Shown piece after piece: positions 45,421 through 59,825 of a stretch of 64,000 nucleotides of DNA. The translations under genes were made by a program, and so were the position numbers. The notes beneath the pieces are model-generated. The model did not search any database, was not told where the DNA came from, and worked only from the letters and a program-made list of their open reading frames with translations. Where the stretch lies: the NCBI GenBank assembly GCA_963706785.1, contig CAVPNJ010000012.1:19253-83252 (forward strand), read 5' to 3'. The stretch comes from an uncultured beta proteobacterium (lineage in GTDB: Bacteria > Pseudomonadota > Gammaproteobacteria > Burkholderiales > Burkholderiaceae_B). Numbering within the stretch: position 1 is the stretch's first letter; each line of letters begins with the position of its first letter.

Positions 45421-46134
45421 TTATCCCGCGACGGCAACGGACTGGCTATCCGGGGCGTTGGCAGTAACGGGTTTCAGCCGCGCAACTACGTCATCAGTAC
45501 CGAGAACATCACCGAAGAAAAGCATCCAGTTGATCAACGAATTATTGTGCTCGTCAGGCGTGACCGCGGATAAGGCGTCATCCACCATCACTGTGGCGTA
45601 GTCCATCATCATGGCGTCGCGGGCGGTGGACTCGCAACAGACATTAGTGACCGTCCCGCCTATGAGCACGGTTGTCACGCCGTTCGCTTGCAGAGTGTCA
45701 TGCAGAGATGACGAGCCCGGTGCCAAGGCGCTATAACAGCGTTTGACGACGCGCTTATCGTCTGCGTGGATGTCGAGCTGCGGTGGAAAGGCGTAGCCTT
45801 GATGGGCAGCGCTAAGTTCAAGTAAGCGGCGGGCGCTGCGTTCCGGCGTCAACATATGGCGATGGTGATGCGACCAAAACGTGTCGGCACCGTCGGAGCA
45901 GGTCTGTACCCAAATAACATGGCCGCCCGCCTGGCGCATAGCCGCGGCAAGCTTGTTGACAGCCGGAAAGGTTGCCCGCGAGGGTGCGCATTCACCCTGA
46001 AAGCCCGGCTGCGTGTAATAGTTTTGCAGATCTATAACCACGAATGCCGTTTTGCTGGCGTCGAATTCGGAATAGGGATGCAAGCGCCCCTGCCGGGCTA
46101 CAACGCGATCAACGACCCACTGGGGAAAGTCCAT
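45421..46134 (-). CDS. isochorismatase-family cysteine hydrolase
   Basis: 237 aa. FVVIDLQNYY..., catalytic Cys context GGTVTNVCCESTARDA. It is the last gene of the ABC transporter operon. Confidence 0.85.
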   Translation of the reverse strand: MDFPQWVVDRVVARQGRLHPYSEFDASKTAFVVIDLQNYYTQPGFQGECAPSRATFPAVNKLAAAMRQAGGHVIWVQTCSDGADTFWSHHHRHMLTPERSARRLLELSAAHQGYAFPPQLDIHADDKRVVKRCYSALAPGSSSLHDTLQANGVTTVLIGGTVTNVCCESTARDAMMMDYATVMVDDALSAVTPDEHNNSLINWMLFFGDVLGTDDVVARLKPVTANAPDSQSVAVAG

Positions 46135-46146
46135 GCTTCTGCTTCC

Positions 46147-47001
46147 TTAAGAGTATCGGCGCGAGGTGGCTGCCTCGAGGCGCGCGATAACCAAATACAT
46201 CAAACCGGAAATGATGGCCAGGACGACGATGGCCGTCATGACTATGTTCAGCTTGAAGACTTGGCTTCCATTAATGATCAGAAAGCCCAGGCCTTCGCTG
46301 GAAGACTGGAACTCACCTACGATCACACCGACCAAGGCCAGTCCGATATTCATCTTCAAGGCGGCCAGCAGTGTGGGGACGCTGCCTGGCAGTACAACCA
46401 TGCTCAGGACTTGCGCGCGCGTTGCGCCCAGGGTGAGCGCCAGCTTTATCTTGTTGGGGTCGATGCCGCGAAACCCTTCATAGACGACCATGATGGTTAT
46501 GAACACAGAGATGGCAACGGCCATGCCGTAAACCGAGTATTCCGAACCTAGCCATATATAGAAAATAGGCACGAAGGCGATTTTCGGCATGGCGTTGCTG
46601 ATGACCAGAAAGGGGTCGAGAACCTTGTAGAAGAAATCCGACCACCATAATGCCGCTGCAAGGGCTATGCCGACGACCATGCTAATGACAAAGCCGATAA
46701 GGGTCGCCTTGAACGTAGCCCAGGTATGCCATAGCAGATCGCCGTTCCGAAGCAAATCGAGAAAGGTCGGCCATACCGCACTGGGATAGCTGGTGAGCAT
46801 GGGATTGACGATATGGGTTTTCGCCATGATCTCCCAGACGGCCAGGAACGCAACCAACAGCAGTATGCGGCTGGCCATGATCATGGTTTGCCTGCGACTT
46901 TCGCGTTTCAGGTACGCGGCATAGGCAGGGCTGGGGGCCGAGGGGGCCGAGCTTGGACTGGAGGTGTCTTTGATAGTTACCGCTGCTGGACTGAGTGCCA
47001 T
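46147..47001 (-). CDS. ABC transporter permease (NitT/TauT family)
   Basis: 284 aa with 6 TM segments. EAA-like loop LTLGATRAQVLSMVVLPGSVPTLLAALK. Confidence 0.88.
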   Translation of the reverse strand: MALSPAAVTIKDTSSPSSAPSAPSPAYAAYLKRESRRQTMIMASRILLLVAFLAVWEIMAKTHIVNPMLTSYPSAVWPTFLDLLRNGDLLWHTWATFKATLIGFVISMVVGIALAAALWWSDFFYKVLDPFLVISNAMPKIAFVPIFYIWLGSEYSVYGMAVAISVFITIMVVYEGFRGIDPNKIKLALTLGATRAQVLSMVVLPGSVPTLLAALKMNIGLALVGVIVGEFQSSSEGLGFLIINGSQVFKLNIVMTAIVVLAIISGLMYLVIARLEAATSRRYS

Positions 47002-47016
47002 TGTGTGACTCCTGGT

Positions 47017-47853
47017 TTAGCCTTCGACGTGTACATCAAGCTCATCCCACAGAGTGCTGAAATAAGTGTTGAACTCGGGAAGGGACCGCGCTTCGAACGG
47101 TGTAGGCCGCCCACTAATATGGCTGGGGAACTGCATTAAGTGTTGCGACTTGATCCGGCCCGGTCGTCGCGACAACACGATGACCCGGTCTGTCATGGCA
47201 ATGGCTTCGCCAATGTCGTGCGTAACCAGCACGACCGACTTACCCTCGCTTCGCAACACGTCGACGACCTCGTCGGCGATAGCCAGGCGAGTTTGCGAGT
47301 CCAGCGCCGAAAAAGGTTCGTCGAGAAGGACAACATCGGGGTTCGTCGCCAGGGTTCTGGCCAAAGCCACACGTTGGCGCATGCCGCCCGAAAGAGCCCG
47401 TGGATAATGATTTAGGAAATTTCCCATGCCGCACTTTTCCAGCAGGTGGATGGCACGCTCACGTGCTTCCTTCATGTTTCTTTTCTGAATCTCCGCACCC
47501 AGCAGGGCATTATCCAGAATGGTGCGCCATTCATAAAGATAGTCTTGCTGCAGCATGTAGCCAATGCGCTGGGACGGCGCAGTCACCGGCTTTCCGCCGA
47601 CTCTGACCACCCCTGCTGAAGGTTCCAGAATGCCGGCGATGATGGATAGCAGCGTGCTTTTTCCACAGCCCGACTGGCCGATTATGCTGACGAACTCGCC
47701 GGCTTCGATGTTTAGCGAAATACCAGCTAATGCCTGGGTCTCGCCCTGTTTGGTGAAATAACGCAGCGATACGTCGTCGATTTCGATACGGGCGGCGCCC
47801 GCTGCAACGCGTGCAGTGCGCGATGCAGGTTCCATGGCGTCGTTCAGCATCAT
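47017..47853 (-). CDS. ABC transporter ATP-binding protein (NitT/TauT family)
   Basis: Walker A GQSGCGKST, signature LSGGMRQRVALAR, Walker B VVLLDEPFSALD. Confidence 0.93.
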   Translation of the reverse strand: MMLNDAMEPASRTARVAAGAARIEIDDVSLRYFTKQGETQALAGISLNIEAGEFVSIIGQSGCGKSTLLSIIAGILEPSAGVVRVGGKPVTAPSQRIGYMLQQDYLYEWRTILDNALLGAEIQKRNMKEARERAIHLLEKCGMGNFLNHYPRALSGGMRQRVALARTLATNPDVVLLDEPFSALDSQTRLAIADEVVDVLRSEGKSVVLVTHDIGEAIAMTDRVIVLSRRPGRIKSQHLMQFPSHISGRPTPFEARSLPEFNTYFSTLWDELDVHVEG

Positions 47854-48870
47854 TTATTTAGCCTCGCTTGCAAAGGTCGTATCGACGATACGGTCGTACT
47901 TGACGCGTTTGTCTTGTTCAAGCAGCCCACTGGCAACCAACATATCCTGGAGCTTTTCCATGGCCGCCTCTTCAACGGCTGGGGTCTTCTTCCATAAGTC
48001 GTATTGGCGGTAGCGGTCGATGGTGGTGACTAGTTCACCTTCGGAAAGACCCGGAAAGTATGAACTGATGTGTTGGGCCAGTGCAGCAGGAGGCGCATCT
48101 TGTACGTATTTTTGTGCCTTGTATATGGCGTTCGTCCAGGCTTGTGCCACCTTGGAGTTTTTCTTTAGGTAGGCATCGGTGGCGGTAAATGAAGTGAAGT
48201 CCACCGGCCCGACCTCGCGGCCTATCGATGCAACCACCTGACCTTTGCCGCTTTTCTCGAGGTTACTGGCCTCGGGTTCAAGGAAGATGGCGTAGTCGGC
48301 CTGGCCCGCCATCCAGGCGCCCGCCCGTGCTGCGGGGCCAATGTTGCTGATCATTTTGACGTCGGACTTAGGGTTCAAGCTATGTTTTCTTAGTGCGGTT
48401 TCCAAAAACACATCTGGATTTGAGCCTGGCCGGAAAGACATAACGCTTTTGCCCTTAAGCATGGCCCAGTCAAAGTCCTTTACTGGTTCGCGCGACAGTA
48501 GAAGAAAGCCGTCGGTTGCTGTAAGCCCGGCGAACACTTTGGGTTTTACCGGCGACTCGCTGTTGGCGACGTATATCGACGCTTCCGGGCCGACCAGGAC
48601 AATATCCGCACTGCCCGATAGCAGTGCGGCCATGCCTTTGTCAGTGCCTTGAGATGTTTTCAAGCTGACATCAAGCCCCGCCTCTTTAAAGTACCCTTGA
48701 TTCAATGCAACGTACATTGGCATGTAAAGCACAGAGCGAACCACCTCTTCATACCGTACTTTGGTGGGTTCCGCTGCGTTGGCTTGGGTTACGGCTGAAA
48801 GTGGAAATAACGCTGCGGATGCAATCAACAATTTGCGGGTAATAGAAAATCGGAGGGAAAGGCTGGGCAT
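47854..48870 (-). CDS. ABC transporter substrate-binding protein (NMT1/TauA/SsuA-like)
   Basis: 338 aa. A signal peptide is followed by a periplasmic-binding-protein layout. The gene abuts the ATPase gene. Confidence 0.8.
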   Translation of the reverse strand: MPSLSLRFSITRKLLIASAALFPLSAVTQANAAEPTKVRYEEVVRSVLYMPMYVALNQGYFKEAGLDVSLKTSQGTDKGMAALLSGSADIVLVGPEASIYVANSESPVKPKVFAGLTATDGFLLLSREPVKDFDWAMLKGKSVMSFRPGSNPDVFLETALRKHSLNPKSDVKMISNIGPAARAGAWMAGQADYAIFLEPEASNLEKSGKGQVVASIGREVGPVDFTSFTATDAYLKKNSKVAQAWTNAIYKAQKYVQDAPPAALAQHISSYFPGLSEGELVTTIDRYRQYDLWKKTPAVEEAAMEKLQDMLVASGLLEQDKRVKYDRIVDTTFASEAK

Positions 48871-48922
48871 GTCTTGCTCCTTGTGTGGTCACGTGCGGGA
48901 ATATCGCGCAAATGCAAAGTTG

Positions 48923-48932
48923 TATACAGTAT
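48923..48932. promoter_or_regulatory. candidate operator, copy 1 of the TATACA(G/A)TAT motif (upstream of the ABC operon)
   Basis: TTGTATACAGTATTC lies 50-60 nt upstream of the binding-protein start codon and contains the palindrome TGTATACA. Confidence 0.4.
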
Positions 48933-49116
48933 TCTAATTTTGATCTGGATCAAAAATAGCATGAATATTGCCCAGTACAAAGCAGGGGTTATCCCTAGGA
49001 AGGGGGTGGTCGGTGAAGAGGATTTAGACAGCGAAAGCCCCACCACTGCATGATTCAGTTGGCGGGGCTAAAAGGAAATAATACGGATAGCTTAGGGGCG
49101 CTGACGCCTAGCCGGT

Positions 49117-49860
49117 TTAGGGGATCGGGCGGGCTTCGGTATAGGCTTTGGCGGCATTGTGAACGTGCTGAGTGGCAAGCAACCCAGCGAGTTCGGCGTT
49201 GCCGTCGATGACGGCGTTAAGGATTTGCGCGTGCTCTTCCCAGTTTTGTTTTGCCCTGCGCATATTGCTGGGGGCAAACAAAAGCGCCGTACGGTCTCGA
49301 AGCGAGCGCATCAGTTCGGTCAACACGACATTGCCGGCAATAATGGCGAGTGCTTCATGGAATTGCGAGTTTAAGTCGCGGAACTTTTCGACGTTTTCTT
49401 TATTGATGGCATCTACGCCATCGTTCAGTATGCTTTGCAAGCGTTCTATCGTTTGTTTATCGCGCCGTTGCGCTGCCAGTCTGGCGTTGAGCCCTTCGAG
49501 CGCTGCACGAACCTCGACCATGTCGTAGGCGATATCGTCGGATAATATTGCCACCGAAGCGCCGCGCCGGGGTTCTATTGCTACCAGGCCTTCGGCAGCA
49601 AGGGCGCGTAGCGCTTCGCGCACGGGTATGCGGGACACCGCCATTTCAGTTGAAAGTTTACCTTCAATCAAGCGATCGCCAGGTCGGAATTCGCCGCTCA
49701 GAATGCGTTCGCGCAGTTTGTCGCGAATGACAGCAAACAGGGGGGAGTGTTGGTTCCCGATTTTTTGCGCCGCGACATCGCTTGGAGCTAGGCCAGGTTC
49801 AACAGTAGTGGAAGACGGTTTCATTATGCCGAGCGCGAAGTTGAACGTAGAGACGTCCAT
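49117..49860 (-). CDS. GntR family transcriptional regulator (FCD subfamily)
   Basis: LRERILSGEFRPGDRLIEGKLSTEMAVSRIPVREALRALAAEGLV, plus an FCD-like helical C-terminus. The start could be 49824. Confidence 0.9.
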   Translation of the reverse strand: MDVSTFNFALGIMKPSSTTVEPGLAPSDVAAQKIGNQHSPLFAVIRDKLRERILSGEFRPGDRLIEGKLSTEMAVSRIPVREALRALAAEGLVAIEPRRGASVAILSDDIAYDMVEVRAALEGLNARLAAQRRDKQTIERLQSILNDGVDAINKENVEKFRDLNSQFHEALAIIAGNVVLTELMRSLRDRTALLFAPSNMRRAKQNWEEHAQILNAVIDGNAELAGLLATQHVHNAAKAYTEARPIP

Positions 49861-49906
49861 TATAAATGATCCTTATATCCGTTATTCAACGCCCACAGGC
49901 ATCGAA

Positions 49907-50647
49907 CTATATCGCTTTTACGATCAGGCCCACTGCACTGAGCGCGCAAAAAACGAGCAGGACCTGCCGTATCCTGGCCGGGCTGATTTTTTGCCTGATG
50001 CGTCCTGAAAGCGAAAACCCAAGAAGCATGAACGGCACCAGCGTGAGGCTAAGCAGGAACTCGTGCCACCCGTAATGGCCGGTCAACGATAGTACGATCA
50101 GCGAAAACATCGAACCGCAAAACAATACGACGCCTATAGTTGCGCGCAAGCTGGGTGGGGAACTATGTTGCAAGGCGATCGCAAGCGGGGGGGCGCCAAC
50201 CGAAGTGAGCGTGCCCATGATACCCGAGACCAAACCGGCCACGCTTACATTAGTGCGTGTCGTGGCAATCCGCAATCCGGTCGCGCTTAGCACGACTGCC
50301 ATCAAAATAAGAACAGCGAACAGTACGTTCAAGGGTTTCGGTGCCAGATGCGCCATCGCGAACGCGGCGATGACAGTTCCGATCGAGCGTCCCACTAAAG
50401 CAGACCCCACGGATGGCCAGGCAATAAAGCGATATTCGCGCAAGGCAGTCAGCAATGTGACAAAGCCGCCCAGTGTAAGCAATGGGCCTGGCACCAGATC
50501 TGGGCAGAAGATGGCAGCAATGGGCGCGGCAAACATCGTGAAGCCCACGCCTCCTACCCCTTGCATAAATGCAGAGCCGCCAATAAGCACCGCCATCAAG
50601 CCATAAAGCTGGGGGTCCGAAAAAGGAAGCAGATCAGATATGAGCAT
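49907..50647 (-). CDS. TauE/SafE (DUF81) family anion exporter
   Basis: 246 aa with about 8 TM segments and Gly-rich helices typical of DUF81 proteins. Co-directional with the downstream GntR gene. Confidence 0.75.
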   Translation of the reverse strand: MLISDLLPFSDPQLYGLMAVLIGGSAFMQGVGGVGFTMFAAPIAAIFCPDLVPGPLLTLGGFVTLLTALREYRFIAWPSVGSALVGRSIGTVIAAFAMAHLAPKPLNVLFAVLILMAVVLSATGLRIATTRTNVSVAGLVSGIMGTLTSVGAPPLAIALQHSSPPSLRATIGVVLFCGSMFSLIVLSLTGHYGWHEFLLSLTLVPFMLLGFSLSGRIRQKISPARIRQVLLVFCALSAVGLIVKAI

Positions 50648-50755
50648 GGGCCGGGGTAGCAGCTAGATATAGGTGGTTCGCAATCCTGACGGGTGGGCTA
50701 TTTTCACTACGTAAGGGAAAACCACCTTGCTATGGTTTTTCTTATCAGAAGATAA

Positions 50756-50765
50756 TATACAGTAT
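50756..50765. promoter_or_regulatory. candidate operator, copy 2 of the TATACA(G/A)TAT motif (divergent TauE / permease promoter region)
   Basis: AATATACAGTATACAGTT contains the perfect 11-bp palindrome TATACAGTATA and a tandem TATACAG repeat. Confidence 0.4.
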
Positions 50766-50824
50766 ACAGTTTCTGGGTGTATTAACAATGTTAATTATTT
50801 AGCACCGCTAAAGAGAGAGGCCAA

Positions 50825-52369
50825 ATGCCGTCAGATGCCGTATTGAACATATCCCACTGGATATACCTGTTAAGCGTAGTAGTCATTATTGTGACCATGG
50901 TTCTACGCGCGAACGTTGTGGTGCCGTCCGTTATCGGCACTTTTTTAGTTGTTACCGCTATTACCGGCAATCCTATCAGCGGGCTTATCGGTATCTTCTC
51001 TGCCAGTTTTGTCGCCGCGAAAGAGTTGTTCAATATATTCCTGGTCATCACATTCATGACGGCGCTATTGAATGCACTGAAGGTGATCCAGGCCGATGTC
51101 CGCATGGTCGAGCCCTTTCGCAAAGTCATGACAGGCGGGCCCATCTCTTTTCTCGTGATAGCGCTTTCAACCTATACAATTTCATTGTTCTTCTGGCCGA
51201 CGCCCGCGGTGCCGCTGGTTTCGGCGATATTGCTACCCGCAGCCATTGCAGCCGGCCTGCCCCCCTTAACGGGGGCCATGGTTATTGCCATCGCGGGGCA
51301 GGGCATGGCTCTGTCTTCCGACTATGTCATTGGGGTCGCGCCCGGAATTAGTGCAAAGGCTGCCGGCGCAGCGATCAGTGTTGCGGCGGTTGCCGATCGT
51401 GCATTGGTGCTTTCGCTGATTACGGGCGTCATAGCACTGCTTATCACCTACATGGTGATGCGCAAGGGGTTCAAGCAACCTCACCCCGACTTGTTGGATG
51501 CCTGGCAAGCTCGCGCGGTCGATTCCTCATTAGAGGTCATAGAGAATTCGGGCAGCTTTGATAAAGCGGAGATGGTCCGTGGCCTGGGTTATGGCGATGA
51601 TGCCGACGAGGCGGCAGCCATCGCTGCCGCGGATCGCGCTTTACTCAGTGAAAAGCGAATCAAATGGTCGAAGCTTTTCGCCATCGTCACGCCGTTGGCT
51701 TTCCTGGGTGTAGTGTTCATCATGGTGCTCCCCGGACTCATACCCGGCCTGCCCACACTTCGCGGCGGAGATGCTGCCGGTCTGGTGGGTGGCGTGGCAT
51801 TTGTCTTGATGATGCTGGCGACGCTTGCGGCAGAGGGCCCGCGCAAAATGCTGGACGCCTGTCCCGAGCACATGACTGATGGTTTTGTGTTTGCATTTCG
51901 TGCCATGGGATCGGTATTGCCGATCGCGGGCTTCTTCTTTCTTGGCGCCAACGAGGCAACGGCGCAAATTCTGGGCGTACCGTTGGCCAACGCGCCTGGC
52001 TTGCTGTTCGAATTAATTGTTGCAGGACAGCACCTTATCCCCGATAACCACTTCATGGTCGCCTTTGGCGTGCTGCTGGTAGGCATGATTTCCGGCATCG
52101 ACGGATCCGGATTTTCCGGATTGCCATTGACCGGAACTTTGTCCGGCGCACTTGGACCGGTCGTGGGCATGGATACGGCGACTTTGGCCGCCGTAGGACA
52201 AATGGGCGCGATATGGACCGGAGGCGGTACGTTGATCGCATGGTCTTCCTTGATCGCTGTAGCGGGTTTCGCACGTGTCCACATTCTGGATCTGGTGCGC
52301 GCTTTGATGTTGCCCGTCGTGGTGGCGCTATTCTTGTCCACTATATGTGCGGTCCTTATCTTCAGGTGA
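50825..52369 (+). CDS. large polytopic permease, family unresolved (ion-transporter-superfamily-like)
   Basis: 514 aa with about 12-13 hydrophobic segments and a central hydrophilic loop. It is followed closely by the GGT-like gene. Confidence 0.6.
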   Translation: MPSDAVLNISHWIYLLSVVVIIVTMVLRANVVVPSVIGTFLVVTAITGNPISGLIGIFSASFVAAKELFNIFLVITFMTALLNALKVIQADVRMVEPFRKVMTGGPISFLVIALSTYTISLFFWPTPAVPLVSAILLPAAIAAGLPPLTGAMVIAIAGQGMALSSDYVIGVAPGISAKAAGAAISVAAVADRALVLSLITGVIALLITYMVMRKGFKQPHPDLLDAWQARAVDSSLEVIENSGSFDKAEMVRGLGYGDDADEAAAIAAADRALLSEKRIKWSKLFAIVTPLAFLGVVFIMVLPGLIPGLPTLRGGDAAGLVGGVAFVLMMLATLAAEGPRKMLDACPEHMTDGFVFAFRAMGSVLPIAGFFFLGANEATAQILGVPLANAPGLLFELIVAGQHLIPDNHFMVAFGVLLVGMISGIDGSGFSGLPLTGTLSGALGPVVGMDTATLAAVGQMGAIWTGGGTLIAWSSLIAVAGFARVHILDLVRALMLPVVVALFLSTICAVLIFR

Positions 52370-52412
52370 TGTCGCCTGGTGCGGCACATATAACACAGTG
52401 GTCAATCGAATA

Positions 52413-53873
52413 ATGGAAATAAAGAAAAGCGCAGTCGGCAGAAGAAGCATGGTCGCTACCGGTAATCCCTTGGCGGCCCGGGCAGCGCAAATGATATTGA
52501 ATATGGGCGGCAGTGCGGTCGACGCTGCTATATCGGCTGACGCAGTGCTGGGGGTCGTGGAGCCCATGGCAACCAGCATAGGCGGCGATCTTCTGGCGAT
52601 GATAGTGCAGCCCGATGGCGACGTTCAAAGCTATAACGGAACCGGCAGGTCGCCCGATGCGCTCACGCCCGATTTGGTCGAGGGTTTTGCTGACGCCAGG
52701 ATCCCTGAGCGCCACCCGTTGTCAGTAACAACGCCTGGGGCGGTGCGCGGCTGGCATGATTTGCACGCGCGTTACGGTCGTATGGATTGGGCCCGGCTAT
52801 TCGATACGGCCATACAACTGGCGCAAGAAGGCTTTCCTGTAGCACCGGTCGCGGCCAGGGAATGGGCTCTTTTCGATGGCGTGTTGCACAAGGATCCAAA
52901 CTGCGCTGCGTTATATAAAGCAGGAAATAGTCCTGCGCCCGGAGCCCATTTCCATAATCCCCATTTGGCGCAAGTGTTGCGGCGTATCGCTCAAGAGGGT
53001 TATCAGGCTTTCTATGGGGGTGCCGTGGCAGTCGCCGCATCGAGCGCAGTCCAAGCGATGGGCGGTGTGCTGGATGCGAGCGACTTCGCCAAGCATAGCG
53101 GCAATTATTGCAAGCCGGTCTCTACGGAGTTTGGCAACACCCGGGTGTATCAATGTCCTCCAAACACGCACGGCGTAGCGGTCTTGCACGCGCTGGACGG
53201 TCTTAGTGGGCTAAGTCTGGATCCGGAGGATCCTGCCGGTTTCGTGCAAATCGTCGAGGCAACCGAAAACGCCATGCGTTTCGCCAGTGCAACCGTGTGC
53301 GATCCCGCAGGCAATACCGTTTGCACCGTCGTTGTCGATTCAGATGGCCTGGCAATTACGCTTATGTCCAGCATTTTCAAAAGATTCGGGTCGGGAATTG
53401 TCGTGCCGGGCGGCGGCTTTGTACTGCAGAACCGTGGTTTCGGCTTTTCACCGCCCGGGCATATTAATGGAGTTGCGCCCGGGAAAAGGCCTTATCACAC
53501 CGTCGTACCAGGAGCTTCTACCCGGGATGGAAAATTCTTCTTGAGCATGGGTGTCGTCGGCGGGCTGATGCAACCGCAGGGACAAATCCAAATTCTTAAC
53601 CGGGTACTGGCGTGGGGCGAAGCGTTGCAATCGGCCATCGATGCGCCTCGGTGGCGGCTCGAGGCCGGCGGCACCCTGGCCATTGAAGCAGGCATGCCAG
53701 CTCCGATTGAGGCCTCTTTACGACAAGCTGGCTATAAGTTGCCGGCCACATCGACAGGCGAACTGGGGGGCCGTAGCGATTTTGGCGGTGCGCACGCGGT
53801 ATTGCGCGACGCAGACGGCCTGCTTCACGGGGCTGCCGATCGTAGAAAAGATGGGGTCTCAATAGCCGGATAA
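52413..53873 (+). CDS. gamma-glutamyltransferase family protein (Ntn amidohydrolase)
   Basis: 486 aa from ATG 52413, with no signal peptide. SMVATGNPLAARAAQMILNMGGSAVDAAI..., PAGNTVCTVVVDSDG (autoprocessing Thr region), FGSGIVVPGGGFVLQNRG. Confidence 0.85.
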   Translation: MEIKKSAVGRRSMVATGNPLAARAAQMILNMGGSAVDAAISADAVLGVVEPMATSIGGDLLAMIVQPDGDVQSYNGTGRSPDALTPDLVEGFADARIPERHPLSVTTPGAVRGWHDLHARYGRMDWARLFDTAIQLAQEGFPVAPVAAREWALFDGVLHKDPNCAALYKAGNSPAPGAHFHNPHLAQVLRRIAQEGYQAFYGGAVAVAASSAVQAMGGVLDASDFAKHSGNYCKPVSTEFGNTRVYQCPPNTHGVAVLHALDGLSGLSLDPEDPAGFVQIVEATENAMRFASATVCDPAGNTVCTVVVDSDGLAITLMSSIFKRFGSGIVVPGGGFVLQNRGFGFSPPGHINGVAPGKRPYHTVVPGASTRDGKFFLSMGVVGGLMQPQGQIQILNRVLAWGEALQSAIDAPRWRLEAGGTLAIEAGMPAPIEASLRQAGYKLPATSTGELGGRSDFGGAHAVLRDADGLLHGAADRRKDGVSIAG

Positions 53874-53916
53874 AGACCCTAGCGGGTTTTCCCCAGTATC
53901 AACGCCCCTATCACGG

Positions 53917-53926
53917 TATACAATAT
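53917..53926. promoter_or_regulatory. candidate operator, copy 3 of the TATACA(G/A)TAT motif (upstream of the di-iron protein operon)
   Basis: CGGTATACAATATGCAATGTAATAC lies about 85 nt upstream of ATG 54008. Confidence 0.35.
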
Positions 53927-54007
53927 GCAATGTAATACGTTGATTCGACCCTATGCCGCCAGATGCGGTGTCATGCACGCATGCGTGCGCTCCAAAAAGG
54001 ATAGATC

Positions 54008-54739
54008 ATGGCTGAACTAATGAACCGAGACGAATTTCGCACGGCCCTGGAAACGGCCATCAAAGGCAAAAGCGCCAATGCATCGCCTTTCAGCATCGCA
54101 TGGGCCAGCGGCAAATTAAGCCGCGACCACTTGGCTCGCTGGGCAGAAAACCACTATCACTACGTTGGCCCGTTTGCCGATTACTTGGCTTATGTTTATG
54201 CCCGCACCCCCGATCAATATACGGAAGCCAAAGACTTTCTTCTTGCGAATATGTACGAAGAAGAGATCGGCGGTGATCGCCACACCGATCTTTTGATCCG
54301 TTTTGCCGAAGCCTGCGGAACCACGCGCGAACGTGTAGTTAGCCCAGACAATATGTCGCCAACCACGCGAGCCTTGCAATCGTGGTGCTACGCCGTTGCC
54401 ATGCGCGAAGACCCCATTGTTGCCGTCGCCGGCCTTGTGGTCGGACTGGAATCTCAGGTGCCGTCTATATACCGCAAGCAGACGCCCACCTTGCGCGAAA
54501 AATACGGCTTCAGCGACGAAGAAGTCGAATTCTTCGATTTGCATATTGTATCCGACGAGATTCACGGCGAACGAGGCTATCAGATCGTGCTTGAGCACGC
54601 CAATACGGTGGAATTGCAACAGCGCTGCTTGAAAATTTGCGAGATTGGCGCGGAAATGCGGTTGTTGTATACCACCGCCTTGTATACCGATTATGTGCAG
54701 AAAGAGATCGCTTTGGAAGAGCTGGAAGTGGCAGCTTAA
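54008..54739 (+). CDS. heme-oxygenase-like di-iron protein (CADD/PqqC/TenA-fold, iron-containing redox enzyme family)
   Basis: 243 aa. Candidate ligand set E85-x6-H92 (YEEEIGGDRH), E148 (VGLESQ) and H179-x3-D183-x2-H186 (LHIVSDEIH). This is the same spacing I recall for the Chlamydia CADD di-iron site. Confidence 0.75.
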   Translation: MAELMNRDEFRTALETAIKGKSANASPFSIAWASGKLSRDHLARWAENHYHYVGPFADYLAYVYARTPDQYTEAKDFLLANMYEEEIGGDRHTDLLIRFAEACGTTRERVVSPDNMSPTTRALQSWCYAVAMREDPIVAVAGLVVGLESQVPSIYRKQTPTLREKYGFSDEEVEFFDLHIVSDEIHGERGYQIVLEHANTVELQQRCLKICEIGAEMRLLYTTALYTDYVQKEIALEELEVAA

Positions 54740-54819
54740 TTCTAAGACTTATCAGCAAGATGGCCGCTTTAGCGGCTTCTTGCCGGTACGTTGTAGCCCG
54801 TATTGAAGGAAGTCTGACA

Positions 54820-56280
54820 GTGCACGATCTAAAAAATCAAATATTTCAAAACTATATCGGCGGCAAATGGCTTGCAAGTGTCACCGGAAAAACATACCAG
54901 AATTCTAGCCCGGCTGACACGCGCGATATCGTCGGCAGTTTTCAGGATTCCAACGCCGATGACGCGGCCTTGGCGGTAAAAGCGGCGCAGGATGCGTTCG
55001 ACGGCTGGAAGAATACTCCGATTGCCAAGCGCGCCAAGATATTATTCGCGGCAGCCGACTACCTAGAGGCCCATGCGGATCAAATCGCGGAAGAGCTCAC
55101 CCGAGAAGAGGGCAAGGCGTTAAATCTTAGCCGAGACGAAGTCCTGCGTTCCGCGCAAACCTTGCGCTTCTATGCGGTGGAAGGGCAAACCTTTACAGGC
55201 GAAACCTTTCCACAAGATGATCCCGACATGGTTGTATATACCCAGCGCGAGCCGCTGGGGGTGGTTACCGTGATATCGCCGTGGAATTTTCCGATTTCCA
55301 TTCCTTCTCGAAAAATTGCGCCTGCACTGATCATGGGCAATACCGTGGTCTTCAAGCCGTCCACCGATGCGCCCTTAAGTGGATACCGTTTAGCCGAAGC
55401 CTTCGTCGAGGCCGGCATTCCTCCCGGCGTGCTGAATTTCATTACCGGACGGGCGTCGGCAGTGGGCAAGACCATTACCGAATCGTCTGCGATCCGGGCC
55501 ATATCATTTACTGGTTCGACCGCGGCAGGTGAATTCATTCATCGTTCCGTCGATATGACCACCCGAACTCAAATGGAGCTGGGCGGCAAGAACCCGCTGA
55601 TCGTTCTGGCCGATGCCGATCTGGACAAGGCGGTTGACTTGGTCATTAAAGGCGGCTTTTCGCTAAGTGGCCAGGCCTGCACGGGTACCAGCCGCGTATT
55701 AGTCGAATCGTCGATCAAACAAGTTTTCACAGATAAGCTGCTCGGCAGGATCAAGGCGTTGAAGATCGGCAACGGCATGAAGCCAGGCTTCGACCTTGGC
55801 CCTTTGGCGACACGCGCCCAACTAGACAATGTCCTGTCTTATATCGAAGTGGGCAAGGCAGAAGCGAAACTCTTGATTGGCGGGGATCGCTTGACGGGCG
55901 AAGAGTTCGACCACGGCTATTACATCAGTCCGGCCGTTTTCACCGACGTTACGCAAGATATGCGTATTGCCAGAGAAGAGATCTTCGGTCCGGTCATCGC
56001 CATTATCGAAGTGGCCGACTATGACGATGCCATTGCCAAAGCCAATGACACTCAATATGGTTTGTCGGCGGCAATTGCAACGCGGAACGCGGTATATGCC
56101 CATCGCTTTGCGAACGATATACAGTCAGGTACGGTAAAAATCAACCGCACAACCACAGGCAACTTGATCAATGCGCCTTTTGGTGGCCTGAAGCATTCCA
56201 GTACATCAACGTTCAGGGAATCGGGACGTGTGGGGCTAGAGTTCTACACGCAGACCAAGACTGTTTACAGAGCCGGCTAA
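54820..56280 (+). CDS. NAD(P)-dependent aldehyde dehydrogenase
   Basis: 486 aa from GTG 54820, with GAAGGA upstream (an alternative ATG is at 54760). VISPWNFP, FTGSTAAG, ELGGKNP, catalytic Cys in GQACTGTSR, EEIFGPV. Confidence 0.9.
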   Translation: MHDLKNQIFQNYIGGKWLASVTGKTYQNSSPADTRDIVGSFQDSNADDAALAVKAAQDAFDGWKNTPIAKRAKILFAAADYLEAHADQIAEELTREEGKALNLSRDEVLRSAQTLRFYAVEGQTFTGETFPQDDPDMVVYTQREPLGVVTVISPWNFPISIPSRKIAPALIMGNTVVFKPSTDAPLSGYRLAEAFVEAGIPPGVLNFITGRASAVGKTITESSAIRAISFTGSTAAGEFIHRSVDMTTRTQMELGGKNPLIVLADADLDKAVDLVIKGGFSLSGQACTGTSRVLVESSIKQVFTDKLLGRIKALKIGNGMKPGFDLGPLATRAQLDNVLSYIEVGKAEAKLLIGGDRLTGEEFDHGYYISPAVFTDVTQDMRIAREEIFGPVIAIIEVADYDDAIAKANDTQYGLSAAIATRNAVYAHRFANDIQSGTVKINRTTTGNLINAPFGGLKHSSTSTFRESGRVGLEFYTQTKTVYRAG

Positions 56281-56336
56281 GGCTGAACGGCCAGGCTCTA
56301 TAGCCCCCATTTTTCTAATTCAAGGTGAGGTTGTTA

Positions 56337-56816
56337 ATGAAGAATACTGTGCGTTTGGAAGTGGAAGAAGCCCGTTTGATGGTGGACGCTGCAGTTGCCA
56401 AATCCAAAGAGATCGGCGTGCTCGAAACGATTTGCGTTGTCGATGAAGGGGGGTTCCCCATCATCCTGGAACGCATGAATGGTGCGCGCATAACCGGGCC
56501 GCAAATCGCCTGGAACAAAGCATTCACGGCAGCGGGGCACAAACGCTCGACGCACTTGTTCACCACTCCTCCGAATGGTCCTGCTCTGCCTGGAAACGAA
56601 GCGTTTGGCATTCAGCTTAGTTTCGAGGGCCGGTTTGCAGCCTTTGTGGGTGGTTTCCCCATTGTGATTGATGATGAGGTCATTGGCGGCATAGGCCTAA
56701 GCGGTGGCAATGGCGAGCAGGACACCAAGGCAGGCCTCGCGGGGCTTCAGGCTTTAGCCGACGCGCTAGCGGACAAGGGCATGAAAGTGTTAGTACAGGC
56801 CGATATTAAAAAGTGA
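56337..56816 (+). CDS. GlcG/HbpS-like (DUF336) haem-binding protein
   Basis: 159 aa. ARLMVDAAVAKSKEIGV...ICVVDEGGFPI...GGFPIVIDDEVIGGIGLSGG. Confidence 0.85.
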   Translation: MKNTVRLEVEEARLMVDAAVAKSKEIGVLETICVVDEGGFPIILERMNGARITGPQIAWNKAFTAAGHKRSTHLFTTPPNGPALPGNEAFGIQLSFEGRFAAFVGGFPIVIDDEVIGGIGLSGGNGEQDTKAGLAGLQALADALADKGMKVLVQADIKK

Positions 56817-56878
56817 ACTTTGGCGGCGCGCATGGTGGCCGGTAAGGCGACTGGCATGCAAGCTACAGGAGGCGAATC

Positions 56879-57895
56879 ATGGCGTACCACGTTCATATTG
56901 CAGAAACCGATGAAGGCTTCGAGGTTGGCGACGACGAGTCCATTCTTGAAGCGGCCACGCGCGCCAATGTCAAAATGGCGCATGAGTGCCAGTTGGGCGG
57001 TTGCGGTACTTGCCGTATAAAGCTGCTCGAGGGATCCGTGCGCTACGACGAGTTTCCTATGGCGCTAACCGAGGAAGAGCATTTAGAAGGTTATGCGCTG
57101 GCATGCCAGGCTCGACCCAATGCCGATGTCGTAATCAGCGCGGCAGCCAAGGGCTTGGAATTCGCTTCGGCAGCAGTGGTCGAGGCACGCGTGAAAAGCG
57201 TAGTGCCGCTGACGGCGGATATCACTCATTTGACTCTGCAAGTATCCGAATCAGCGCCACTGGATTACCGCCCGGGTCAGTATATGAATATCCTGCTCGA
57301 GGACGGAAGCGCGCGTAGCTTCTCCATGGCGTCGGCACGTTTGCCAGATAACATGGTCGACTTTCATATTCGCCGCATCCAGGGTGGATTCTTTACCGGC
57401 GAGCAACTGCTTGCCATGCAGCCGCAGATGCCGCTATGTATAGAAATACCATTGGGAACGTTCTGCTATCACGAAGACGATTGGCGGCCTTTGATCATGG
57501 TGGCCACTGGCACGGGCTTGGCGCCCATTAAAGCCATTCTGGAATCATTGCTAGACAACGATGATTGCCCGCCGGTGTCGCTTTATTGGGGCATGCGCTC
57601 CGAGGCAGACCTGTACCTAAGCCAGGAAATCGAATCCTGGCAAGGACGTTTGTACGAATTCAACTTTATACCGGTGCTTTCCCGCGCCGGGGCGGAATGG
57701 CAAGGTCGTCGGGGCTATGTGCAGCATGCTGTTATCGACGACTTTGATGACTTATCCGAGCATGCAGTTTATATGTGTGGTTCTCCCGATATGATCGCCG
57801 AGGCGAAATCCCTGTTCGCGGGCAAAGGCGCAAGCCTGGATCACATCTATTCCGATAGCTTCACATTTCAGAAACCCGTGGCCCTGTTGACCTAA
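56879..57895 (+). CDS. [2Fe-2S] ferredoxin-FAD-NAD(P)H oxidoreductase (three-domain reductase component)
   Basis: 338 aa. Plant-type cluster motif CQLGGCGTC...LACQ, FAD motif RSFS, NAD motif GTGLAP, and C-terminal CGSPDM. The architecture matches the reductases of soluble di-iron monooxygenases and AscD. Confidence 0.88.
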   Translation: MAYHVHIAETDEGFEVGDDESILEAATRANVKMAHECQLGGCGTCRIKLLEGSVRYDEFPMALTEEEHLEGYALACQARPNADVVISAAAKGLEFASAAVVEARVKSVVPLTADITHLTLQVSESAPLDYRPGQYMNILLEDGSARSFSMASARLPDNMVDFHIRRIQGGFFTGEQLLAMQPQMPLCIEIPLGTFCYHEDDWRPLIMVATGTGLAPIKAILESLLDNDDCPPVSLYWGMRSEADLYLSQEIESWQGRLYEFNFIPVLSRAGAEWQGRRGYVQHAVIDDFDDLSEHAVYMCGSPDMIAEAKSLFAGKGASLDHIYSDSFTFQKPVALLT

Positions 57896-57946
57896 CCGTC
57901 TATATCGCCGCTCTTACATCTTAATTTTTCGCCGTGAGCTTACACA

Positions 57947-58255
57947 ATGCCTACAGTTGTTTTCCACAAGGCGGGTCAGACGTATACCGAAGTTGTTAAT
58001 GACAACACCAATCTGGTGGTGCGCGCCGGGATTAAACAATTCCCTTATCCCAATCTGAAATATCAATGCGGCATGGGCAAGTGCGCTACCTGTGCGTGCC
58101 GGGTTATTTCCGGTGGCGAACACCTGCCCCCTGCCAATTGGAAGGAAAAGAAGCAGTTGGGCGAGCGAATCGAGCAGGGATACCGGCTGGTCTGCCAACT
58201 ATGGTTAAGTCATGACATTGAGTTGACGCAGGATATTGCGCCGGCAGCTAAATAA
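57947..58255 (+). CDS. small plant-type [2Fe-2S] ferredoxin-like protein (copy 1)
   Basis: 102 aa. CGMGKCATCAC (C-x4-C-x2-C) and a distal Cys in GYRLVCQ. Confidence 0.8.
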   Translation: MPTVVFHKAGQTYTEVVNDNTNLVVRAGIKQFPYPNLKYQCGMGKCATCACRVISGGEHLPPANWKEKKQLGERIEQGYRLVCQLWLSHDIELTQDIAPAAK

Positions 58256-58270
58256 GATAAAAGGCCAGGT

Positions 58271-58591
58271 ATGTATGTGATTCTAGTGAGCAAACCCGGT
58301 ACGTATCATAGCCAGGTCGGCCCCGAGGCGAAAGTTATTGAATCGTACCAATATCGCTATTGCGGCAAGACCAAGGCTATCTACCAGCTCGTGGAGTTGG
58401 AAGGGGATACCCGCATCCGTATCACCGAGGATGATCCGCCCAATATTGTCAATAGCGTGCCCTCCAAGTTCCTGGAAAAATTCGACACGATAGAACAGGC
58501 GCGGGCCGAACTAAATCATTTGGCGCAGTTTGGCGGCCAGGATGCGGCGATGGTGCGCTGCGATAACGAGCGTCCTACGGGAATAATTTAA
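58271..58591 (+). CDS. hypothetical 106-aa protein between the two ferredoxin genes
   Basis: It is tightly packed in the operon (15 nt after ferredoxin 1, 2 nt before ferredoxin 2). The composition is protein-like and soluble. I recognise no motif. Confidence 0.6.
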   Translation: MYVILVSKPGTYHSQVGPEAKVIESYQYRYCGKTKAIYQLVELEGDTRIRITEDDPPNIVNSVPSKFLEKFDTIEQARAELNHLAQFGGQDAAMVRCDNERPTGII

Positions 58592-58593
58592 CT

Positions 58594-58872
58594 ATGGTTG
58601 AAATCACCTTCATCAACAATAACGGCTTGGTCGCTGCGGCCCCCGAAAACAGTAATCTACTTCGTGTGTCGATCAAGGAAAGAGGCGGCATTCCGTTCAA
58701 GTGCGGAGGGGGGCTTTGCGGTACATGCAAGTGCCACATCGTAGAAGGCATTGAAAATACCGACAAAATCAAGCCGAAAGAACGCAAGCACTTGAAACCT
58801 GAAGACTTTGAAAAGGGTTATCGCATGGCGTGCCAGACGTTTGTCATGGGAAATATCAAGGTTGCTTGGTAA
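58594..58872 (+). CDS. small plant-type [2Fe-2S] ferredoxin-like protein (copy 2)
   Basis: 92 aa. CGGGLCGTCKC and GYRMACQ. A clear paralogue of the 57947 protein. Confidence 0.8.
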   Translation: MVEITFINNNGLVAAAPENSNLLRVSIKERGGIPFKCGGGLCGTCKCHIVEGIENTDKIKPKERKHLKPEDFEKGYRMACQTFVMGNIKVAW

Positions 58873-58892
58873 AGCCGCAAGGAAGTCGATCT

Positions 58893-59825
58893 ATGTTGCA
58901 TATCTCCGACGAGATGGTGAACGCCGTCGTGGCGCCACGCGATGCGCAGGAAGTGTTGCTTGCCGCCTTTCTAAGCTACGCCGATGGCGAAGCCTCGATG
59001 CAGAAGCGCATTCGAACCGAGACTGACGGTGTCAAGCTTTCCACGTTAGGCGCAGTAATTCCAGGCCAGGGGGTCGCCGGTGCAAAGGTTTACACAACGA
59101 TAAATGGCCAGTTTTCCTTTGTGATCTTATTATTTTCAGCGCAAGATGGGCGCCCGTTGGCTACCTTCGACGCAGCCGCCCTTACCCGTATACGAACCGC
59201 CGCCTGCACGGTGTTACTAGCAAAAAAACTAGCACGTCGCTCGGCCAAAACCATGGGCTTGTTTGGCGCGGGAATCCAGGGGACCGAACATGCCGTCCAA
59301 CTGGCGCACGAATTCGGACTTGAGCAGATACTTGTCTGCGATCCCTACGCAGCTCCCGATACTGCGAATCGGCTGGCGACGGCATCCGGCGCGTCAGTCC
59401 AGATGGCGACGGCCGATGAAACGGTGGCCAGTGCCGATATTTTGGTTACGGCCTCGCGCTCGACTATGCCGCTTTTTTCTGGCGAGCTATTGCGCCCGGG
59501 TGCGTTTGTGGCAGCGATCGGATCCAGCTTGCCGACGACCCGCGAGCTGGACGATGCCGCCATGGCGAAGGCGAAAGCCATCGTCATCGAATGGCGGCAA
59601 CAGTCTTTGGAAGAGGCGGGGGATTTAATCCTTGCCCACCCTGAAGCATTGGTCAGCGCAAAGGTGGTCGAACTTGGGCACGTGCTGGCGGGCGCCAGCA
59701 TATGCCGGCAATCGGAAGATGATGTTTTCGTCTATAAGTCGGTAGGGGTGGGGCTGGAGGATATCGCGTTGGCCGGTCATGCGTATCGCCAGGTGGCACA
59801 GCTTAAGGGCTTGGCATTGCCATAG
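58893..59825 (+). CDS. ornithine cyclodeaminase/mu-crystallin family protein
   Basis: 310 aa from ATG 58893, with AAGGAAG upstream. LTRIRTAACTVLLAKKLA..., Rossmann motif GLFGAGIQG, GAFVAAIGS, VYKSVGVGLEDIA. Confidence 0.88.
   Translation: MLHISDEMVNAVVAPRDAQEVLLAAFLSYADGEASMQKRIRTETDGVKLSTLGAVIPGQGVAGAKVYTTINGQFSFVILLFSAQDGRPLATFDAAALTRIRTAACTVLLAKKLARRSAKTMGLFGAGIQGTEHAVQLAHEFGLEQILVCDPYAAPDTANRLATASGASVQMATADETVASADILVTASRSTMPLFSGELLRPGAFVAAIGSSLPTTRELDDAAMAKAKAIVIEWRQQSLEEAGDLILAHPEALVSAKVVELGHVLAGASICRQSEDDVFVYKSVGVGLEDIALAGHAYRQVAQLKGLALP

Follow-up and report, generated by a model that had tools for sequence, protein, structure and literature searches.

Within the window, the 64,000-nucleotide stretch of contig CAVPNJ010000012.1 from an uncultured beta proteobacterium, eight forward-strand genes between positions 54008 and 59825 encode a heme-oxygenase-like diiron oxygenase (HDO) together with an NADH reductase, two ferredoxins and several further partners. 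This gene cluster is real, strongly conserved and apparently uncharacterised, and it apparently specifies a multicomponent HDO oxygenase. The reading preferred here, to which a probability of about 0.55 is given, is that the cluster belongs to an inducible catabolic regulon built around a multicomponent HDO monooxygenase, which makes a semialdehyde for an aldehyde dehydrogenase (ALDH) resembling the 2-oxoglutarate-semialdehyde dehydrogenases (KGSADH). A search of open-access and bioRxiv full text, with subscription journals outside that scope, found no paper on the cluster and no published pathway for it, so the suggestion of an undescribed system made in a preliminary description of the window stands within that literature.

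The oxygenase and its redox partners

The open reading frame (ORF) list, along with Pfam and NCBIfam scans, confirms eight same-strand genes at 54008-59825 with domains matching those predicted in the preliminary description. With the ALDH start placed at the GTG at 54821, the spacers are, in order, 81, 56, 62, 51, 15, 2 and 20 nt. The genes are as follows.

54008..54739, +, HDO, heme-oxygenase-like diiron oxygenase, predicted catalytic component (243 aa; PF14518 8e-39, PF03070 4e-13)
54821..56280, +, ALDH (PF00171 2e-164; the ORF is also open from 54757 or 54637)
56337..56816, +, GlcG/HbpS-like (DUF336) accessory protein (PF03928 2e-30)
56879..57895, +, reductase (Red), NADH:ferredoxin type of the BenC/MmoC class (Fer2, FAD_binding_6, NAD_binding_1)
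57947..58255, +, FdxA, plant-type [2Fe-2S] ferredoxin (102 aa; Fer2 5e-9)
58271..58591, +, orf106, conserved orphan (no family match)
58594..58872, +, FdxB, plant-type [2Fe-2S] ferredoxin and paralogue of FdxA (92 aa; Fer2 7e-13)
58893..59825, +, ornithine cyclodeaminase (OCD)/mu-crystallin-family NAD(P) enzyme, an imine reductase or amino-acid dehydrogenase, accessory (PF02423 1.5e-39)

Judged by its sequence, the 243-aa protein is an HDO that lies outside every functionally defined HDO subfamily. It scores 133.7 bits against PF14518 (cut-off 28.9), and its closest solved sequence relatives are the 4-aminobenzoate synthases (9pj4, and Chlamydia CADD 1rcw and 8va9; E ~5e-18), followed by PqqC; in this search of the PDB the CADD match reached 69 bits and the PqqC match 47 bits, HDO and CADD being 25-27% identical. 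The AlphaFold2 model (pLDDT 83) likewise has CtCADD 8va9 as its top Foldseek match (TM 0.79/0.89, rmsd 2.2 Å), with PqqC, UndA, HrmI and FlcD next in the ranking and TM values of 0.67-0.83 across the set. The CADD/PqqC fold first proposed for the protein is thus upheld by PF14518, PF03070 and Foldseek, as is the claim of a complete di-iron ligand set; the CADD ligands E81, H88, E142, H174, D178 and H181 align with E85, H92, E148, H179, D183 and H186 of HDO, and this three-His/three-carboxylate set is invariant in 24 orthologues and in relatives down to 29% identity. Because all six ligands are kept over that range, HDO is predicted to carry a metal site, and the cofactor-less PqqC/TenA option is excluded. 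The sacrificial residues of CADD, on the other hand, are replaced in the alignment, Tyr27 by Ser29 and Lys152 by Gln158, and HDO scores below the cut-offs of the CADD model TIGR04305 (98.8 bits, cut-off 200), the PqqC model TIGR02111 (54.9 bits, cut-off 240) and the TenA thiaminase II model TIGR04306 (16.8 bits, cut-off 130). NCBIfam release 20 holds no model specific to HDO, to orf106 or to perm514 (a membrane protein encoded upstream), and the contig index contained no exact match to the window HDO sequence.

Red has the Pfam domain order Fer2 (6-80), FAD_binding_6 (104-197) and NAD_binding_1 (207-309), with cluster cysteines Cys37/42/45/76, in keeping with the MmoC/DmpP-type architecture recognized at the outset; it matches the BenC model at 178 bits and the MmoC model at 161 bits, both under the equivalog cut-offs. 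The two ferredoxins, 35% identical to each other, share the pattern Cys-X4-Cys-X2-Cys...Cys, at Cys41/46/49/83 in FdxA and Cys37/42/45/80 in FdxB. Between them lies orf106, for which no Pfam match even at E 10, no NCBIfam match and no PDB sequence match was found, and whose confident AlphaFold2 model (pLDDT 85), a beta-rich fold of six or seven strands plus a single helix, finds no counterpart in the PDB by Foldseek (best E 0.19). The name degenerate ferredoxin, borne by orf106 in some NCBI records, was rejected given the lack of conserved cysteines and an hhalign probability versus FdxB of 0.1%; an effector of the MmoB/MmoD/PaaB-like or MmoB/DmpM type was rejected for want of any Pfam or Foldseek match. 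The protein is a candidate effector, coupling or assembly subunit. The GlcG-like protein has as PDB relatives 2a2l, NahX (9jth, 65 bits), the formaldehyde sensor EfgA (6bws) and the C-terminal domain of PduO.

More distant HDO relatives place these partners in perspective. The gene for a 50%-identical HDO (P0182; locus L088, ena:ERZ27245924 k141_292308, 37-1221), on a contig of 1.3 kb only, is followed by one for a 101-aa Rieske ferredoxin and then by a GlcG/HbpS-like gene. Since the ferredoxin has here been replaced by a non-orthologous one while the link between HDO, ferredoxin and GlcG has been kept, no other comparative evidence here argues as strongly as this swap that delivering electrons to HDO through a ferredoxin is the selected function, and the swap also strengthens the analogy, drawn in the preliminary description from the layout of the genes, with bacterial multicomponent monooxygenases. 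HDO paralogues at 36% identity, found in other clusters (L092/L093, 6481-16082; L090/L091, 1810-9459), have no ferredoxins beside them. In one such subfamily the genes run ALDH-HDO-ALDH-MFS-SBP_bac_5-isochorismatase-GGT with a GntR-FCD regulator, and a different 36%-identical relative sits in a degradative-looking cluster with arylmalonate-decarboxylase-like, ALDH, FAD monooxygenase and PrpD-like genes. These paralogues may be further catabolic HDO families, and CADD-like HDOs within degradative ALDH clusters seem to be a recurrent, undescribed theme.

Conservation of the cluster and its regulon

A word-indexed search recovered 1405 HDO relatives, the best 120 of which, each sharing 84% identity or more, are spread over alpha-, beta- and gamma-proteobacteria, and a scan of GTDB species found a relative encoded in at least 576 species genomes. 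Within a library clustered at 50% identity, the range from 78% identity upwards is occupied, among the matches listed, by one near-full-length representative plus fragments, the next full-length relatives listed lying at 50%, 41% and 36%. Eighty loci were retrieved, in which HDO is 86-96% identical to that of the window, and the 65 loci of at least 15 kb were used for a census in which the proteins of the window were compared with each locus by tblastn. By this measure HDO and GlcG occur in 65/65 loci, orf106 and FdxB in 64/65, FdxA and the GntR/FCD regulator in 63/65, perm514 in 60/65, ALDH in 58/65, the reductase, within 10 kb of HDO, in 53/65 and the TauE/SafE permease in 39/65. The core therefore comprises HDO, GlcG, FdxA-orf106-FdxB, GntR, perm514, ALDH and the reductase, and GlcG, present throughout, is a core HDO partner rather than a bystander. 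The blocks FdxA-orf106-FdxB and ALDH-GlcG-Red are never broken, while the overall order varies between genera; because the gene set recurs at HDO with shuffled order in all 65 long loci and in many genera, the arrangement is far beyond chance. In several alphaproteobacteria, only perm514, HDO, FdxA-orf106-FdxB, GlcG and GntR lie within 10 kb. The preliminary description had proposed examining whether the di-iron protein, reductase, two ferredoxins and OCD-like gene co-occur across genomes; the census links HDO to the ferredoxins and the reductase, while OCD proved to be accessory, it or an AspDH-like substitute being present in 37/65 loci.

All-against-all clustering of the ORFs from the 80 loci brought out no further cross-genus enzyme family. 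No second oxygenase, CoA ligase, transaminase or sulfite dehydrogenase is conserved across these loci, and neither the window cluster nor the conserved set contains a ferritin-like alpha-subunit hydroxylase. As far as gene content can indicate, HDO is the only candidate O2-activating enzyme of that set.

Comparison of the window with Poseidonocella, Bradyrhizobium, Cupriavidus and Achromobacter gives HDO nonsynonymous distances (dN) of 0.06-0.10, with synonymous distances (dS) above 2 or not computable and third-position identity of ~50%, and the partner proteins have dN of 0.10-0.58. With synonymous sites saturated while dN is low, the conservation of HDO reflects strong purifying selection; recent horizontal transfer of the cluster was rejected as its cause in view of the saturated dS and the far greater divergence of the partners. 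The entire cluster is carried on the mobilizable 377-kb Caballeronia plasmid pSBC2-4 (L081), where it adjoins ISNCY transposases, and it also occurs on Cupriavidus chromids, including the megaplasmid of C. metallidurans CH34 (L082). Four Cupriavidus records have no annotated feature over the HDO region in the PLSDB table. In Bordetella bronchiseptica the cluster is intact (L026), and the Bordetella pertussis records (P0009, P0014) hold partial products only, namely a 149-aa fragment labelled 'hypothetical protein, partial' along with a 234-aa product labelled 'integral membrane protein', which is consistent with gene decay in a host-restricted species. One 90% protein cluster mixes 502-aa membrane proteins with HDO and is probably a clustering artefact.

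Upstream of the HDO operon lie further genes and predicted operators that bear on its regulation.

45421-46134, -, isochorismatase-family amidohydrolase, fourth gene of the ABC operon (operon 45421..48870; Pfam + NCBIfam)
46147-47001, -, permease of the SsuA/NMT1-type ABC transporter (Pfam + NCBIfam)
47017-47853, -, ATPase of the same transporter (Pfam + NCBIfam)
47854-48870, -, substrate-binding protein (SBP) of the same transporter (Pfam + NCBIfam)
48922..48932, +, predicted operator upstream of the ABC/isochorismatase operon (exact motif match)
49117..49860, -, GntR/FCD transcriptional regulator of the regulon (PF00392 + PF07729)
49907..50647, -, TauE/SafE (TSUP) anion permease (PF01925 4e-20, 72.9 bits)
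50755..50772, no strand assigned, overlapping predicted operator copies between the divergent TauE-GntR and perm514-GGT units (motif scan)
50825..52369, +, perm514, polytopic membrane protein and presumed substrate carrier (no family match)
52413..53873, +, GGT-family (Ntn) amide hydrolase, cytoplasmic, accessory (PF01019 2e-108; the ORF is also open from GTG 52347)
53916..53926, +, predicted GntR operator upstream of HDO (motif GTATACA(A/G)TAT)

The motif GTATACA(A/G)TAT is a GntR-type palindrome kept upstream of HDO in alpha- and beta-proteobacterial loci. The window holds six matches to it versus 0.63 expected, five of them within three promoter regions and the sixth, with one mismatch, inside the HDO gene. 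Across loci, the motif stands upstream of HDO in 59/68, of perm514 in 53/63, of TauE in 33/39, of an amidase gene in 14/14, and of the SBP gene in 5/5 loci carrying one. Four units thus appear to share a predicted operator, namely the HDO operon, perm514-GGT, the divergent TauE-GntR unit and the ABC/isochorismatase operon. Because the upstream units share the HDO operator motif, the unit in the window would run from ~45421 to 59825; the eight-gene operon as first described is real, but it is only the downstream part of this functional unit, which also takes in perm514, GGT, TauE, GntR and the ABC/isochorismatase genes. A separate regulated promoter for the HDO operon probably lies in the 134 nt that follow the GGT gene, and the transcription unit of this operon is taken to end at 59825 because the next downstream gene is convergent. 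A scan for promoter and terminator consensus sequences did no better than on shuffled sequence.

The carriers differ in how widely they are conserved. perm514 has ~11-13 hydrophobic segments in two halves, and membership of AbgT, GntP, DcuC or any other described carrier family was rejected, there being no Pfam, NCBIfam or PDB match even at E 10. The TauE-like permease has no NCBIfam equivalog match; its gene lies within the operon in Cupriavidus and Poseidonocella, and its presence suggests export of an anion. The four genes of the ABC/isochorismatase module are lineage-specific members of the regulon, found in the window, its close relatives and Variovorax; the Variovorax loci L060, L074 and L077, as well as L001 and L078, carry the module within the cluster. 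The window SBP reaches only 70 bits against the SsuA_fam model (cut-off 163.5). In Roseococcus, GlcG is followed by a different NMT1 ABC system.

A class-II glutamine-amidotransferase-like GATase_4 gene (44565-45395, +) is convergent with the isochorismatase gene and is probably unrelated; as an EgtC/YafJ-like candidate member of the unit it was rejected, since it does not lie beside the ABC/isochorismatase module in Variovorax. Just downstream of the cluster, an RpoH-like sigma factor gene falls into two overlapping ORFs (61310-61681 and 61647-62192, +) that differ in frame, and a LivK-like periplasmic binding protein gene is likewise split (60009-61043 and 59894-60157, -). These are either indel errors of assembly or pseudogenes, sequencing error being the likelier of the two because rpoH is normally essential.

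A proposed catabolic route and its alternatives

The enzymes that accompany the oxygenase constrain what it might do. The ALDH probably starts at the GTG at 54821, with the ribosome-binding site GAAGGAAG upstream, to give 486 aa as in its orthologues. Its best family models are NF042993 GucD (559 bits, cut-off 770) and NF052305 (550 bits, cut-off 750), and HpaE, the next-best family not annotated as a 2,5-dioxovalerate dehydrogenase, reaches 440 bits; the enzyme therefore appears closest to the 2-oxoglutarate-semialdehyde (2,5-dioxovalerate) dehydrogenases, by a margin of ~120 bits, yet it falls below the cut-off. Among PDB entries it is most similar to betaine-aldehyde dehydrogenases (350 bits). 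The OCD protein matches PF02423 at 136 bits and is far under the cut-off of every equivalog model (OCD, Pyr2C reductase, BhcD, EutC, SbnB); it has a close solved orthologue (PDB 3hdj, 401 bits), a 'probable ornithine cyclodeaminase' with no function attached. OCD occurs in 33/65 loci and is replaced by an AspDH-like gene in four more. An amide hydrolase occurs in 29/65 loci, as a GGT-like protein (13), an amidase-signature (AS) enzyme (14), an alpha/beta hydrolase or a creatininase-like protein; together with the isochorismatase-like enzymes, five unrelated amide-hydrolase families fill this one accessory slot. The slot co-occurs with OCD/AspDH, both being present in 27 of the 65 loci, OCD/AspDH only in 10, hydrolase only in two and neither in 26. 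The GGT-like protein of the window best matches 2nlz, a 'cephalosporin acylase' (253 bits), and also 5hft (107 bits), which we take to be the structure of the GGT-family oxamate amidohydrolase HpxW, its label in the search being only gamma-glutamyltranspeptidase. OCD, the amide hydrolases and TauE are accessory and lie outside the core. The interchangeable hydrolases suggest a small amide, and the swap of OCD for AspDH a 2-imino or 2-amino acid. An amino-acid-derived substrate had been suggested in the preliminary description, partly from the OCD-like gene; the idea receives no support here, the gene being accessory and travelling with an amide hydrolase, and the GntR-FCD regulator and carriers point to an organic-acid substrate rather than an amino acid.

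We infer that the gene content permits only a short route, consisting of uptake, one O2-dependent step and one aldehyde oxidation, to which the hydrolysis of an amide and either an imine reduction or an amino-acid dehydrogenation can optionally be added. In the presence of a small organic acid, the GntR/FCD repressor would leave its GTATACA(A/G)TAT operators, releasing several transcription units, and the substrate would be taken up by perm514 or, in some lineages, by an ABC or MFS system instead. Electrons would pass from NADH to Red (FAD, [2Fe-2S]) and then singly, via FdxA and FdxB, to the diiron site of HDO, with orf106 and GlcG/DUF336 as putative obligatory helpers acting in effector or gating functions, complex assembly, or cofactor upkeep or protection. 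Reduced HDO would activate O2 for oxygenation at or next to a carbon-heteroatom bond, or for ring opening, and the product would be, or would collapse to, a semialdehyde, most likely one resembling 2,5-dioxopentanoate. Oxidation of this semialdehyde by the KGSADH-like ALDH could then feed central metabolism, for example at 2-oxoglutarate, and regenerate NADH. Where present, the amide hydrolase and the OCD/AspDH-type imine reductase or dehydrogenase may recover a nitrogen-bearing fragment, and the TauE-like permease may remove an anionic by-product. Candidate substrates can be named only speculatively, and include a dipicolinate-type N-heteroaromatic acid, a sulfonate and a C5-substituted C5 2-oxo/imino acid.

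Support for this multicomponent monooxygenase comes from the precedent of MboA/MboB, in which an HDO needs a flavin-[2Fe-2S] reductase (PMC13185094). Several points weigh on the other side. The BenC-type reductase has its own [2Fe-2S] domain, so that the need for two more ferredoxins is not obvious; several alphaproteobacterial loci lack the reductase and ALDH within 10 kb; and, the ALDH being below the KGSADH equivalog cut-off, the identity of the aldehyde is a guess. Moreover, generic reductants suffice for most characterised HDOs, and several of these enzymes catalyse oxidations that need no stoichiometric external electrons, which means that the ferredoxins could serve only to re-reduce or repair the cofactor.

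This last point underlies the alternative that ferredoxins and reductase occasionally re-reduce a labile dimetal site, HDO itself being an oxidase or a ring-cleaving dioxygenase-like enzyme. The XylT/NahT ferredoxins, which reactivate catechol 2,3-dioxygenase, provide the model, and the plant-type ferredoxins, NahX-like DUF336 protein and HpaE-like ALDH (440 bits) all resemble accessories of meta-cleavage operons. In addition, the reactions of many HDOs are net oxidations in which the cofactor is lost or becomes oxidised during turnover, and the absence of a reductase near the cluster in several alphaproteobacteria also fits a repair role. However, a dedicated NADH reductase is retained in 53/65 loci as part of a fixed ALDH-GlcG-Red block, two ferredoxins plus orf106 are kept almost universally, and the Rieske replacement mirrors true multicomponent monooxygenases; repair is rated improbable. 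A biosynthetic or cofactor-forming role, with HDO as a CADD-type self-sacrificial p-aminobenzoate synthase or a PqqC-like or TenA-like protein and its neighbours unrelated, would agree with the CADD and PqqC matches (69 and 47 bits) and with the source annotations 'PQQ synthase' or 'TenA regulator'. Both sacrificial CADD residues are nevertheless substituted, the CADD, PqqC and TenA cut-offs are missed, the full metal-ligand set excludes the cofactor-less types, and the surrounding genes, regulator and carriers included, are conserved between bacterial classes together with the shared operator, all of which leaves this role strongly disfavoured and by far the least probable of those considered.

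Within the preferred catabolic, multicomponent reading, two specific substrates have been considered, both unlikely as they stand. The first, ranked slightly ahead of repair, is an N-heteroaromatic (di)carboxylate such as dipicolinate (pyridine-2,6-dicarboxylate, from spores). HDO would hydroxylate or open the ring to yield an N-oxalyl enamine and, by its collapse or hydrolysis, oxamate or oxalate plus ammonia and 2,5-dioxopentanoate, which ALDH would convert to 2-oxoglutarate; the hydrolase would take the oxamate or N-oxalyl amide, OCD/AspDH would reduce a 2-imino acid, and TauE would export oxalate or oxamate. This scheme would accommodate the KGSADH-like ALDH, the interchangeable small-amide hydrolases (a GGT-family enzyme among them), the imine-handling OCD/AspDH swap and the combination of GntR-FCD regulator and anion-type carrier, and one oxygenase and one ALDH would be enough to reach central metabolism. 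HDO is also a homologue of PqqC and CADD, whose substrates are aromatic carboxylates, and Achromobacter is strongly represented among the loci; an Achromobacter was reportedly found by Kobayashi and Arima in 1962 to oxidise dipicolinate via 3-hydroxydipicolinate to 2-oxoglutarate, oxalate and NH3. Yet the scheme is built throughout on indirect reasoning; 3-hydroxydipicolinate as a true intermediate would need a second ring-cleaving oxygenase, and none is conserved; the Achromobacter loci have no hydrolase or OCD genes within 10 kb; and an aromatic-acid-type transporter signature was not found. The second, ranked slightly behind repair, makes HDO a sulfonate monooxygenase acting on a carboxy- or amino-alkanesulfonate, where hydroxylation of the carbon bearing the sulfonate would release sulfite and an aldehyde, with TauE exporting the sulfite and ALDH oxidising the aldehyde; in a variant, HDO deaminates a taurine-like compound, and ALDH yields a sulfo-acid that leaves the cell as in the SafD/SafE route. 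In its favour, the TauE/SafE permease occurs in 39/65 loci, with the operator at 33/39 and an intra-operon position in Cupriavidus and Poseidonocella, and SsuA/TauA-like NMT1 ABC transporters adjoin the cluster in the window, Variovorax and Roseococcus. TSUP and NMT1 proteins are, however, functionally broad, and the SBP stays well short of the SsuA_fam cut-off; TauE is absent from ~40% of loci, the 80 loci share no conserved sulfite dehydrogenase or further sulfur gene, and the regulator is of the GntR-FCD rather than the sulfur-starvation type.

Relation to known oxygenase systems and broader significance

To our knowledge, the HDOs named in the papers retrieved and among the structure matches (UndA, BesC, SznF, CADD, HrmI, FlcD, RohS, AetD, MboA) are all biosynthetic, and only one dedicated HDO redox partner pair has been reported, in 2026. 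That pair acts in mangotoxin biosynthesis and consists of the HDO acetylenase MboA and the NADH-dependent flavin-[2Fe-2S] reductase MboB, which is needed for turnover, the authors calling it possibly the first dedicated HDO-redox partner pair (JACS 2026, PMC13185094). The earlier statement that HDOs are not described with operon-encoded electron delivery is hence outdated. As in MboAB, an HDO with a 3-His/3-carboxylate site is encoded here beside a flavin-[2Fe-2S] NADH reductase, a likeness drawn from the description of MboAB and not from sequence. Unlike MboAB, whose two proteins belong to a small peptide-toxin biosynthetic cluster that also encodes ATP-grasp ligases, the present cluster has a six-protein oxygenase set with two free ferredoxins, orf106 and the GlcG-like protein, and it is catabolic-looking, placed under a GntR-FCD regulon with carriers and an ALDH and spread over at least 576 species genomes. 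CADD (CT610), the p-aminobenzoate synthase, is the closest solved structure and has the same six metal ligands; it differs in its sacrificial Tyr27/Lys152, which HDO lacks along with a score above the TIGR04305 cut-off, and in having no operon redox partners, regulator or carrier.

In organization, the cluster comes close to the four-component monooxygenases T4MO and ToMO, where an NADH reductase of the same class passes electrons to a small ferredoxin and on to a diiron oxygenase assisted by a ~100-aa cofactor-free protein; the pairing of an HDO relative with a Rieske ferredoxin adds to the likeness. The oxygenase here is, in contrast, a single 243-aa heme-oxygenase-fold protein rather than a ferritin-like alpha-beta-gamma hydroxylase, there are two ferredoxins, both of the plant type, orf106 has no detectable similarity to MmoB/DmpM/T4moD, and the GlcG-like protein is an extra obligatory partner. 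Meta-cleavage operons (XylT/NahT, NahX, hydroxymuconic-semialdehyde dehydrogenase) also combine a small ferredoxin, a DUF336 protein and a semialdehyde ALDH with a non-heme-iron oxygenase, a resemblance at the family level only; there an extradiol dioxygenase takes the oxygenase role, the ferredoxin serves solely for its repair, and these operons have neither a dedicated reductase nor orf106. In the vitamin B6 pathway, a ring-cleaving MHPC oxygenase gives an acylamino-enamine, from which a hydrolase yields succinic semialdehyde for an ALDH. That sequence of oxygenase, amide hydrolase, semialdehyde and ALDH matches the gene content and is used here as a chemistry template only, the oxygenase there being a flavoprotein and homology not being implied. 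It is tentatively proposed, at slightly less than even odds, that the cluster represents the first catabolic, truly multicomponent HDO oxygenase, served by an NADH reductase and two ferredoxins (a Rieske ferredoxin in a sister lineage), with perm514 as a new type of carrier and orf106 and GlcG as obligatory components unprecedented in this role. Its regulon, widespread in alpha-, beta- and gamma-proteobacteria, would be directed at an acid common in the environment and would possibly be the long-missing aerobic dipicolinate pathway.

A conserved catabolic HDO with a full electron-transfer chain would extend the multicomponent-oxygenase architecture to a third diiron scaffold, and it would give the DUF336/GlcG proteins and two orphan families, orf106 and perm514, a testable role. 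The identity of ~88% for HDO between bacterial classes, with synonymous sites saturated, is unusual for a peripheral catabolic enzyme. A catabolic HDO system of this kind would also point to an unassigned but evidently important nutrient pathway in model organisms such as Cupriavidus necator, C. metallidurans, Bordetella bronchiseptica and Achromobacter.

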